Source: an archaeon (GTDB taxonomy: Archaea > Nanobdellota > Nanobdellia > Pacearchaeales > GW2011-AR1). From it: a stretch of DNA of 64,000 nt. Below are positions 30,701 to 33,700 of this stretch, one piece after another. How positions within the stretch are numbered: position 1 is the first letter of the stretch; each line of letters starts with the position of its first letter. Location of the stretch: the NCBI GenBank assembly GCA_030636025.1, contig DAOVXQ010000005.1:12700-76699 (forward strand). The letters are read 5' to 3'. Below the pieces are notes generated by a model. That model saw only the letters and a list, made by a program, of their open reading frames with translations. It was not told the origin of the DNA and ran no database searches. Made by a program: the position numbers and the translations under genes.

Positions 30701-33700
30701 CTGTCGCCGAAGCATTAAACACAACATCATTTGTATTCCAGTTTGAATCATTATTCGGACTATTAACTGTTAAAGTTGGTGCAGTAACTTCACTAACATT
30801 CAAAGTCATTGGATTCAAACTACTCGCCTCTAAAATCGGGCTGTAAAAATCATATGTCCCGACATCAAACTTGAACTCAGGCAAAATATGCGTCGCATCA
30901 GTCCCAATTGTCAAATTAACCTCATCACTCCCTGAACCATCAAACAAACTATAATCCGAATACGCCCACTTCGCCCGCCCCGATGTATAAAGCTGTTTTA
31001 TCTCATCCTCACTTAATGACCTATTAAATATCATTACCTCGTCGATTGAACCGTTGAACGGTCTGTAAGTTCCATCCCAGCCCCCAATTCTTACACTGTT
31101 AGTGCTTGTCGCAAAACCCCCAATTGTGATGGTACTATTAACAAGAATTCCATCAACATATAAAACTAAATTATCGGGCTCCCATGTTCCTACAACGTGG
31201 TGCCAGTTTCCATCATGATAATTTTCATCATGCGCAATAATAAAAGAAGTTCCACTTGAATTATGTATAATTAAACTAAATTTTCCATAGCTGTCAGCAT
31301 GTAAAATATAAGCACGATTAGAACCCGAGCCACCAAATTCATTTTTAGTGATAATATAAGCATTAGAACCCAAACCAGTATTTGTGTATTTCAACCATAC
31401 TAATAGAGTCATGCCATCAGTGAGATTCAAACTCTCATCATTCCCAACATCAACCCAATCACCATCCCCATCAAAATCCCCACCCCGACTATAAACCCCA
31501 TTAGCATTTGAAATATCTCTATCCCCGCCCCCCGAAGCATTTGAATAAACCGTCCCATTATTACTATTCCCAGACCAAACACCCTCGACATCTCCCTTTC
31601 TCACCAAAACAATATCATTCCCCACATCAACATCGTAAATCTTCCCCGAATAATTCTCCCGAGTTATACTCTTAACCCTCACTTCATCATTCTCTGAATT
31701 GCCTTCCTCAGAAGGTACTTGCCGAGGCGTCAAGAAATAAACATCATCCCCATTTTCAAACCGAGAGTAAGTTTCTGTAACCTGCTCTAAAGAGAAATCA
31801 GATAAATCTTTTGAATCAAAAGATTTAAATAGTGCATTACCTGTATTATGTGTATTAAATACATTAAACAAATCCAATAAAATGCCAACACTAACATTAT
31901 CTGTTCCAGAAGAATTAAAGAAAACAATGGATGAATTACAAATCATAAATTGGTCAGCTGTAGCCAGACAAGCGATAGAACGAAAAGCATCACAATTAAA
32001 AGTATTACAAGAATTTACCAAAGACAGCGACTTCACCGAAGAAGACGCATTAGAATTAGGAAGAAAACTAAACAAAGAGTTATCTAAAAAATTTAAGGCA
32101 TCCTCGGAGCAATAAATGCAACTTGTTGTAGATGCCAACATTTTATTTTCCGCACTAATTAAAAATTCAAAAACAGCAGAGTTATTTCTTTCAGACAAAC
32201 TCGAACTAATCGCACCAGAATTTTTATTAATAGAATTCGAAAAATATAAATCACTAATATTATCAAAAACACATCGTTCTGAGCAAGAACTTTCTAATGT
32301 GCTTTTAATTTTCAAAAATAAGCTATCATTAATATCCAAACCCGAAATAGAATCGTTTCTCAAACAATCTGATTCAATTTGCCCAGACCCCGACGACATA
32401 CAATATTTAGCCACAGCACTCAAATTTAACTGCTCAATCTGGTCCAACGATAAACACTTCAAAGAACAATCTGAAATTGAAGTATTCACAACAGCAGACC
32501 TAATTGAACTATTCGAGCTTGAAGAATAAACCCTATGCTCCTCGCTAACAACCAACTCCCTGCCATCATCCAAAACAATCTTATACATCTCACCAAAATT
32601 ATCAAAAACCTGTCTCTCCGACGGCAACTGCCACTCCCCCTCACCTGTCTCATCATTCAAAGTCATAACTCTCTCATCATCTTTCAAATCAGCAAACAAC
32701 TTCCACTCTTCTTTATAGCATTTTTTATTCTTATCATCAACAGAAAAACTTAAATAATCCTCATTCTCATTATTATCTGTCAAAATGGCAGAGCTAATTA
32801 ATCCTAAACAAAAGTTTGACTCTGAATTCTTAGTTAAAGCCGTAGTTAAATTAATGAAACAAAATATTTCTGAAAGATTTTCTAAAACCAGTACTTTATC
32901 TGAGGGAGACCAAGAATTCTGCGACAAGATTGATTGGTATCCTATTGATGAATTAGAACTAAAAGAATCTTTTGTTAGGGAGTTAAAAGAAATTGAAAAA
33001 GGACCGCACTCTGAAATGACTTTAGACGAATTAGACAAATTATCAGGATTAAAATGACTTTCAAATTCGAGCTTTCTGATAAATTGAGGAACACTATCAA
33101 TAAAATCTCGAGAAAAGACAAAAATCTCTCCATTATTATAAATAAAAAAATCAGACAGATTATTTCCTGTGATGAAACTGCTATTCAACATTTCAAAAAT
33201 CTCAGGCATGGATTGAGTGACTACAAAAGAGTCCAAATTGGAAGTTTTGTCCTCATATTCAAAGTTAAAAGAGATAAAATCATCTTTGAAAACTTTGTTC
33301 ATCACGACCAAGCCTACTAAATCTTCTTTCTCTTCTTCATCTTCTTCACAATATTCAACACCTGCTTGCAGGTTCTCGCCTGCGTTGCAGGTTCTCGCTT
33401 GTGACCTGTGGGTTATGCCCTTTAGGGTATGCCCTGAAAGGGTATAATCCCATTCATCACCACAATCAACTTCAACCAAACTCAAAATCTCTGTCTCATT
33501 ATCATAACAATGCCCTGAAAAATCCTCTAAAGTTGAACCATTACTTAAATTGCTTTCATCAAAATGCCAGTATCCTACCAAGCTATCTTCTCCGACAAAA
33601 TCACTTTCATTATAGCCCAAAGAAACATCCCAATAACCTGCCCTTGCACTCAAATTGCTCCCCTCATTAGATTGATATGTCGCACTCAACTCAATATTAT

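Follow-up and report, generated by a model that had tools for sequence, protein, structure and literature searches.

A stretch of 64,000 nucleotides from an archaeon of the order Pacearchaeales (contig DAOVXQ010000005.1, positions 12,700 to 76,699), here called the window, contains a giant surface-protein gene that is interrupted by two inteins. Intein 1 carries an additional 765-nt segment in the first turn of its Hedgehog/intein (Hint) domain. This segment is probably a compact type II toxin-antitoxin (TA) operon, placed antisense in the Hint turn of an intein already loaded with a VapBC operon, and it is predicted to act as an addiction module. The cassette would consist of its own promoter, an antitoxin whose family is uncharacterised, a toxin of the RelE/YafQ-like mRNA-interferase kind and, joined to them, a GC-rich hairpin element. 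It would belong to a clade specific to DPANN archaea, recoded without stops in the codon-aligned antisense frame. The features of the host gene, of intein 1 and of the insert are as follows. Coordinates are those of the window, and slashes within protein sequences mark junctions.

24741..37328, minus strand: host gene, an open reading frame (ORF) of 4195 aa for a surface protein with seven Laminin_G_3 domains and two inteins
31566..33509, minus strand: intein 1, 648 aa, with Cys1 at 33509 and two antisense TA operons aboard
28386..29717, minus strand: intein 2, 444 aa, with its Cys at 29717, the comparator in the same gene without a block-A insert
33480..33509, minus strand: first half of block A, CYDNETEILS (Cys1 and strand beta1), from the alignment of intein 1 and intein 2
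32715..33479: insert, 765 nt or 255 codons, in the beta1-beta2 turn of intein 1, from the alignment to intein 2
33450..33479, minus strand: conserved N-side end of the insert, LVEVDCGDEW, with the same motif at the same place in the related loci L009, L002/P0006 and L030
32715..32726, minus strand: conserved C-side end of the insert, KKCY, directly before the turn and beta2 (KEE-WKLF), with xKCY in relatives
32526..32714, minus strand: remaining N-terminal Hint half of intein 1, from beta2 to block B (KEEWKLF...VSEEHRVY)
31566..31835, minus strand: C-terminal Hint half of intein 1, blocks F/G (...IYDVDVGNDIVLV...GVWSGN)
32742..32758, plus strand: promoter-like element with a purine-rich transcription factor B recognition element (BRE; agaaaaa) and a TATA box (cttaaataat), 26 nt before the antitoxin ATG
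32785-33057, plus strand: gene in the antitoxin position, 90 aa, overlapping the toxin gene by ATGA
33054-33320, plus strand: RelE/YafQ-like toxin gene, 88 aa, codon-aligned antisense to the host frame
33321..33348, plus strand: pyrimidine run ATCTTCTTC, 3.1 copies with a 9-nt period, adjoining the toxin stop; acidic EEDEEEKED in the host frame
33346..33453, plus strand: GC-rich element with two stable hairpins, each from a short tandem duplication

The 88-aa protein matches the YafQ-family toxin profile TIGR00053 over residues 3-88 (E 7.8e-12; 45.7 bits, cut-off 87). The match to PF05016 (ParE_toxin) has an E value of 0.011 and 16.7 bits (cut-off 23), and a weak match of this kind is found in all four toxin family members tested. 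The only significant PDB match in a profile search is RelE3 of M. jannaschii (3bpq_B, E 9e-4). The protein database contains 62 homologs, several of them with PF05016 or PF15738, and homologs are named at source 'mRNA-degrading endonuclease RelE' or 'addiction module toxin RelE [Nanoarchaeota]'. Exact-protein look-up returned no database record for this toxin or for VapC1, the toxin of the other operon in intein 1. Residues H83, H84, D85 and Y88 of the toxin are conserved. The protein is supported by sequence comparison as a member of the RelE/ParE superfamily and a predicted mRNA interferase. Since the curated cut-offs are missed, it is placed in the superfamily as YafQ/RelE-like, without a subfamily.

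The gene upstream encodes a protein with only a weak family signal, to DUF2683 (E 0.0075; Pfam/NCBIfam). It shows no sequence relation to RelB, DinJ or ParD, and no relative was found in PDB. Its homologs, 43-64% identical, are located upstream of the toxin in L001, L004, L005 and about 20 further loci, and the upstream partner and the ATGA overlap are kept in nearly all of about 25 embedded loci. The 90-aa and 88-aa genes thus form a coupled, conserved pair, which is a predicted type II TA operon. The TATA-like cttaaataat is located at 32749-32758. A motif a(g/a)aaaaCTTAAATAAtc is kept 24-31 nt upstream of the antitoxin ATG in L006, L009, L030 and L067. Conservation of the BRE/TATA motif is a feature of the subtype-1 cassettes, and the sequence similarity ends just upstream of the motif. 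It looks like an archaeal promoter of a nearly leaderless mRNA, a function that we infer from sequence.

A second cassette subtype is observed in L001 (4365-4574, 4062-4364 and 3787-4065, minus strand) and about 12 other loci. There, a third small ORF lies ahead of the antitoxin and ends in ...taaATG. The antitoxin of this subtype is 100 aa long and has a VapB-like N-terminus (MxSITxx...FxWVNWSEV) fused to the domain of the window antitoxin. The window antitoxin itself is without this VapB-like N-terminal domain.

An earlier note, based on the letters of the window alone, had described most of this cassette. The RelE/ParE-type toxin is borne out by TIGR00053 (E 7.8e-12), by RelE3 (E 9e-4) and by the homologs named RelE. 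The PF05016 profile search proposed there gives consistent matches in four of four family members, which are weak and below the curated cut-off. The 90-aa ORF and the 88-aa ORF do overlap by atga (32785-33057 and 33054-33320), and the TATA-like element, placed about 25 nt before the ATG at 32785, is found at 26 nt. The antitoxin-like ORF stands as to position and pairing, with the refinement that it falls outside the established RelB/ParD families. The insert itself, proposed as an in-frame segment in block A of intein 1, is exactly 255 codons long (32715..33479). The host frame is still open across it, with zero stops over its genes against 3.2 and 5.7 expected; 'in frame' here means stop-free on the antisense strand.

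These expected numbers of antisense stops are based on frequencies from 23 other genes of the window. The host frame contains no stop across the antitoxin gene (3.2 expected) and none across the toxin gene (5.7 expected), and it is open over the segment against about 9-13 expected stops. The toxin gene contains no TTA, CTA or TCA codon, though TTA accounts for 43% of the Leu codons in the window. A scan of one genome per species gave 80 relatives of the toxin, almost all from DPANN archaea (Woesearchaeota, Pacearchaeota, Nanoarchaeota and others). Twenty-five of the 80 are stop-free in the codon-aligned (offset-0) antisense frame, which makes 26 with the window copy. None of the remaining 55 is stop-free (mean 4.7 stops, minimum 1), at a similar GC content. 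At least 21 stop-free toxin copies are located within antisense ORFs of 250-2754 aa, most of which have Hint motifs. Among the 26 stop-free copies, mean identity is 53.7% for the toxin frame and 33.2% for the host frame, and in 325 of 325 pairs the former is better conserved. The plus-strand genes are therefore under purifying selection, and the host frame is selected mainly not to stop. Antisense stop-freedom is a selected property of the whole toxin clade, limited to its embedded copies.

The host protein contains Laminin_G_3 in seven stretches (E 7.7e-165, Pfam scan). Two segments break its LamG repeats at homologous points. Uninterrupted repeats read DYMGRNNGSVEG, whereas the first interrupted repeat reads DFSGH/CYDNET...GVWSGN/SNNGTV (site of intein 1) and the second DYMH/CYDDET...GVWSGN/SNNGSVEG (site of intein 2). 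Judged against the uninterrupted repeats, the insertion of the inteins is precise and in frame. Both inteins terminate in GVWSGN/S. The splicing residues of intein 1 are C1, S67-E-E-H70 in block B, the C-terminal Asn and the +1 Ser; none of these positions (Cys1, S-x-x-H, terminal Asn, +1 Ser) varies over 11 members of the intein family. All 32 residues that are invariant in the family alignment are retained in intein 1. The penultimate residue is Gly, where His is usual.

Pfam Intein_splicing matches the single sequences weakly (E 4e-4 and 2e-3, under the cut-off). A profile built from the 11 family members stripped of their cargo matches the solved inteins AceL NrdHF, MJ0781 KlbA and PI-PkoII (E 5e-4 to 8e-3). 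AlphaFold2 on the cargo-free intein 1 gave a confident Hint fold with a mean predicted local distance difference test score (pLDDT) of 89.7 and a predicted template modelling score (pTM) of 0.85. Foldseek with this model returned 61 PDB matches at E<=1e-3 (E down to 2.8e-7, template modelling score up to 0.76), with hedgehog Hint, some forty intein chains and bacterial intein-like (BIL) domains at the top. By its predicted Hint fold, splicing residues and precise insertion, intein 1 belongs to the inteins, and it is predicted to splice. The first two strands of the cargo-free model are at residues 7-10 and 14-16, on either side of the insertion point. Therefore, the 255 codons enter between residues 10 and 11, in the beta1-beta2 turn. 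The site is correctly described as inside block A, yet in the model it is structurally a surface turn.

In the alignment of the two inteins, the insert is bounded exactly by CYDNETEILS and KEEWKLF. The N-side end occurs as LEEVDCGSE in L009, RIEVECG in L002/P0006 and VDCGDY in L030. On the C-side, xKCY precedes x-x-x-W/L-K-Y/L-F in L009, L002, L008, L006, L030 and P0001. Each conserved end contains one cysteine (EVDCG and KCY); possibly, these pair or bind a metal and so hold the loop together at its base. Translated in the host frame, the insert matches no Pfam family, and its pLDDT is below 50 in the full-intein model.

The same cassette was found elsewhere, as the earlier note had proposed to look for, at several intein sites of other genomes. 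The recurring unit extends from the promoter to the toxin stop. The window, L008 and L009 have it in block A. In L006, L010, L014, L022, L026, L032 and L035 it follows block B and takes the place of the endonuclease, and in L030 and L067 it is located in a C-terminal loop between the last two Hint strands. In L023, it is located centrally in an unrelated, canonical HN-type intein (...TGNHPYLV... and ...THNFIANDIIAHN/T), and therefore more than one intein family has been colonised.

Intein 2 of the same gene has no insert. The nearest relative found, L086 (Ga0075122_10000667, from a metagenome scan with VapC1), is a giant LamG gene homologous to that of the window. The VapC in its intein has 75% identity to VapC1, against 43% between VapC1 and VapC2. 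Its intein reads GH/CYDDETEILT-EAG-WKLFVDL, without an insert. The DNA of L086 aligns to both insert ends, with 27 of 30 nt identical on the left and TGGAAGTTGTT on the right. These comparisons agree with the earlier proposal of a later insertion into an intein that was already loaded. The several sites of the RelE cassette show it as clearly movable and support, as far as sequence can tell, a secondary gain in an intein that already had VapBC. The proposal that it was an independent event is to be refined. The later gain is supported, and block A is a recurrent cargo site with possible modular arrival: the ends xxEV(D/E)CG and xKCY are found in L009, L002, L008, L006, L030 and P0001 with different contents, and recombination between inteins, instead of a de novo insertion, may thus have delivered the segment as a module. 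The similarity of the N-terminal half does not resolve whether intein 1 belongs to an insert-bearing subfamily, since it is about equal to inteins with and without insert.

Several side observations concern these cargo sites. In L030 and L067 the toxins are at 3989-4258, which marks the third cargo site (...DIVLVRR...[cassette]...IWSGN/S). The toxin of L023 (Nanoarchaeota JBDRFR010000008.1) is at 4001-4279 within a 2754-aa ORF, with block B TGNHPYLV and block G VYDLEIENTHNFIANDIIAHN/T. In L007 (Woesearchaeota CAYIAV010000082.1; toxin at 1810-2094) a stop-free cassette is located in the linker of immunoglobulin-like repeats within a 1153-aa ORF. In the TARA metaclust protein P0001, the N-terminal Hint half and the RelE-cassette translation are each present twice, in series. 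In L024 (toxin at 2550-2810), a 16-aa direct repeat, IQ(S/E)G(I/Y)C(T/Q)EDGKFYKQE, flanks the block-A cassette. The arrangement in P0001 or L024 could reflect nesting or a duplication-generating integration.

Other identities and insertion signatures were considered for the segment. It is not a nested intein; it starts with LVEVDCG, ends with DDKNKKCY/K and has neither a second Hint half nor a terminal Asn-nucleophile pair. Nor does it make intein 1 a homing-endonuclease intein: Pfam gives no match to the host-frame translation of the insert, and no endonuclease family turned up when the entire host protein was scanned. The insert lacks terminal inverted repeats, and the segment encodes no recombinase. 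The insert is bracketed by a 14-nt direct repeat (32693-32706 and 33463-33476, 12 of 14 identical), which was rejected as a target-site duplication because 76 of 500 shuffles reach its score; the same test of flanking repeats in L009, L002 and L030 had a mixed outcome. A degenerate duplicate of block A at the right end of the insert (SVDDKNKKCYKEEWKLF versus CYDDETKILTDEGWKLF) is weak and is not seen in L009. It is speculation that it could be a trace of Campbell-type integration.

Downstream of the toxin, the GC-rich tandem repeats reported earlier are real (33361-33441). They comprise a repeat with a 19-nt period and 2.1 copies at 33361-33398 (Tandem Repeats Finder score 67) and a second repeated hairpin motif at 33411-33441 (three matches, 0.02 expected). 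GC content in the element is up to 0.6, versus 0.32 on average in the window (32%). The folding energy of the element is -52.2 kcal/mol on the plus strand (z -7.45) and -47.3 kcal/mol on the minus strand (z -5.9). Rfam gave no family for the hairpins, either at gathering score or at E<=10, and ARAGORN gave no tRNA; the hairpins are thus rejected as a known RNA. No GC-rich element was found downstream of the toxin in other cassettes, and the motif is in no other locus. The sole resemblance is to 15 of 16 nt of the variable arm of the tRNA-like gene in L002, on the opposite strand relative to the host. The element may serve to terminate or insulate the antisense operon, or it may be decayed RNA-gene cargo.

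The cassette may persist as follows. Since the antisense frame has no stops, a ribosome on the giant mRNA would read straight through the insert and produce a 255-residue, probably unstructured loop. The intein most likely still folds, because the loop would be attached to the Hint fold at a surface turn. Protein splicing would then excise the intein and the loop with it, so the cassette would cost the host protein nothing. The TA pair is most likely an addiction module. With loss of the intein, the labile antitoxin would be lost and the toxin would poison the cell. Addiction would hold the endonuclease-less intein in place.

Several points weigh against this reading. The toxin matches in Pfam and NCBIfam lie under the curated cut-offs. 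For the 90-aa protein, searches of Pfam, NCBIfam and PDB gave neither a known antitoxin family nor a recognisable DNA-binding domain. No mechanism of cassette movement was found, as there is no recombinase, no terminal repeat and no significant flanking repeat. The reading does not account for the GC-rich hairpin element. AlphaFold2 on the full 648-aa intein 1 gave a mean pLDDT of 35.5, which says nothing on tolerance of the insert. Tolerance is thus argued from topology and the conserved catalytic residues. No Hint motif was found near the L007 cassette, so tolerance does not strictly depend on an intein. The steps that we infer are transcription from the TATA box, toxin activity together with its neutralisation, continued splicing and a role in addiction.

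It is hardly credible that the plus-strand ORFs are no genes and merely shadow the long ORF on the minus strand. Gene callers ignore them and their exact proteins have no record, but the significant family matches, the free-standing homologs annotated as RelE, a plus-strand frame with higher conservation than the host frame in 325 of 325 pairs, and the conserved ATGA coupling and promoter all speak for genes. A spurious-ORF reading is ruled out by the family matches, the plus-strand conservation and the free-standing homologs. It is also quite unlikely that intein 1 is dead, that is, that the insert abolished splicing and all 648 residues stay in the mature protein. The frame would then be open only so that the downstream two thirds and the C-terminal membrane anchor get made. 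Such a state would fit the L007 cassette, which is apparently tolerated unspliced in a repeat-protein linker without Hint motifs, and the full-length model, which has no confident N-terminal hairpin. However, Cys1, S-x-x-H, the terminal Asn, the +1 Ser and the 32 of 32 family-invariant residues are intact. Block-A inserts stand beside intact Hint motifs in the distant genomes L009, L008, L030, L006 and L002, and the insertion point is a surface turn.

Two further explanations change less of the addiction-module reading. The block-A segment may be a modular second cargo bay in the form of an extended hairpin, handed down within an intein subfamily with its contents swapped, which intein 1 acquired by recombination with another intein; L086 would then be the bay-less form, original or reverted. 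This is possible, though the less expected history. The conserved ends at an identical position in L009, L002/P0006, L008, L006, L030 and P0001 favour it, as do the variable contents (the window, L008 and L009 have a RelE cassette, L030 and L006 have tRNA-like genes, and L002 has nothing but GC-rich sequence) and the nearly equal similarity of the N-half of intein 1 to inteins with and without insert. On the other hand, L086 as the nearest relative by cargo, intein 2 and most family members have no insert. In any case, such a history alters how the segment arrived, not what it is. The operon could instead serve the cell, in abortive-infection defence or stress response, and use the intein as a safe parking place in a compact genome. 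This is considered unlikely. It would be in accordance with the 55 of 80 toxin relatives that are free-standing and with further TA-like genes nearby (DUF2283, 37650-37853), and nothing in the sequence links toxin activation to intein loss. Service to the cell fits the anatomy and differs only in the beneficiary, but it leaves the subclade-wide antisense recoding and the recurrence at three sites, and in two unrelated intein families, unaccounted for.

The other cargo of both inteins is VapBC.

31882-32115, plus strand: vapB1 (VapB NF050799, E 1.5e-6), antisense in intein 1, endonuclease position
32116-32529, plus strand: vapC1 (PIN_2, E 5.1e-27), antisense in intein 1, endonuclease position
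28867-29100, plus strand: vapB2, antisense in intein 2, endonuclease position
29101-29505, plus strand: vapC2 (PIN_2), antisense in intein 2, endonuclease position

The host frame is open over vapB1 and vapC1 against 2.7 and 4.8 expected stops, and over the VapBC operons of intein 1 and intein 2 against 7.5 and 7.4, respectively. For each of the four VapB/VapC genes, 2.7-4.8 stops are expected and zero are observed. As VapC1 and VapC2 share only 43% identity, the two inteins hold different VapBC lineages. Upstream of vapB2, an extra VapB-like N-terminal fragment is located at 28723-28851 (plus strand) and shares 49% identity with VapB1 over 43 aa. It is reminiscent of relatives with three-gene cassettes, in which a small VapB-like ORF lies ahead of the antitoxin. 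A DUF2283 protein (E 5.5e-13) is encoded directly upstream of the giant gene, at 37650-37853 (minus strand), overlapped and preceded by a 76-aa ORF without family at 37849-38076 (minus strand). These two are possibly another small TA-like pair, and the surroundings of the giant gene are rich in TA-like modules.

Related inteins also contain tRNA-like genes of 84-85 nt on the sense strand, and the intein ORF reads through them. They are located at 4329-4412 (plus strand) in L002, at 1241-1325 and 5393-5477 (both minus strand) in L030, and at 1776-1859 (minus strand) in L006. Their site is in the block-A insert just before KCY in L030 and L006, and just before block F in L002. ARAGORN assigns them to Ile-GAT or Val-GAC, and that of L002 has an Rfam tRNA score of 59.5 bits. 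All form a cloverleaf with an extra arm, and compensatory changes are found in 15 of 25 pairs. The L002 gene has a TATTTAAATAT box about 25 nt upstream, and the other three are preceded by the host-frame motif that corresponds to it, YLNISV/YINFSV.

Inteins are selfish elements that persist through a nested homing endonuclease. Like canonical inteins with a nested LAGLIDADG or HNH endonuclease (PI-SceI, PI-PkoII, Mtu RecA), the inteins described here have a Hint domain split by cargo between blocks B and F. They share the precise in-frame site, Cys1, a TxxH-like block B, the terminal Asn and the +1 Ser, and the principle of a selfish element within a selfish element. In contrast to canonical inteins, the cargo forms an operon of its own that is read from the opposite strand, and the stretch of intein polypeptide encoded across it is only a stop-free by-product. 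The cargo is a predicted RNase toxin pair instead of a DNA endonuclease. A second cargo is present in the block-A beta1-beta2 turn, the penultimate residue is Gly instead of His, and the host is a surface protein instead of a replication or repair enzyme.

The cassette resembles RelBE and YafQ-DinJ, including RelBE3 of M. jannaschii (PDB 3BPQ), in the toxin of about 88 aa with a full-length match to the YafQ profile and a match to RelE3, and in the upstream partner gene with a 4-nt overlap. It differs in its antitoxin, which is unrelated to RelB, DinJ or ParD, and in its genes, which are recoded antisense stop-free and lie inside ORFs. Chromosomal TA modules stabilise mobile or dispensable DNA, as in plasmid addiction and superintegron cassettes. 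The role proposed here, preventing loss of the carrier DNA, is the same, but here an intein would be what is stabilised, and the module overlaps with an ORF that is translated. In Hint and BIL systems of polymorphic toxins and secreted proteins, an in-frame C-terminal toxin domain is released by Hint autoproteolysis. The likeness lies in a toxin-associated Hint domain within a large secreted or surface protein, and BIL domains are among the Foldseek matches. Here, however, a separate RelE gene of cytoplasmic type encodes the toxin on the opposite strand, and the splicing set of the Hint domain is complete (Cys1, Asn, +1 Ser).

The closest published concept found is the ShiLan-type insertion in phage methylase genes (PMC11855218). 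It is a stop-free in-frame insert that hides a gene for an HNH endonuclease, out of frame and on the same strand, and its host-frame product is thought to loop out (PMC11855218). Both are mobile inserts without a stop in the host frame, with the real gene in another frame (PMC11855218). The ShiLan gene is on the same strand and has no splicing domain around it (PMC11855218), whereas the cassette in intein 1 is a two-gene antisense TA operon with its own promoter inside a Hint domain. No published description of TA operons antisense within inteins was found in the full-text literature, the coverage of which was partial.

If the addiction-module reading is true, inteins would have a second persistence strategy, addiction instead of homing. 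The cassette would be a clean natural case of long antisense double coding kept by selection, as the free-standing relatives are not stop-free. The Hint fold would tolerate hundreds of inserted residues in its first hairpin turn, which would be useful for intein engineering. There would also be a blind spot of annotation, where gene callers give the giant ORF only and miss the embedded TA and tRNA-like genes. The cooperation of two selfish elements becomes testable. More broadly, though at somewhat less than even chance, DPANN archaea may harbour 'frame-silent' mobile operons with their own promoters, the inteins of surface genes may be platforms with several bays, and addiction may replace homing there. 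It is similarly tentative that the bays are the central site, the block-A hairpin and the C-terminal loop, and that they also take tRNA-like genes on the sense strand. Related genomes indicate that one selfish element living inside another is a recurring and apparently undescribed pattern in DPANN archaea.

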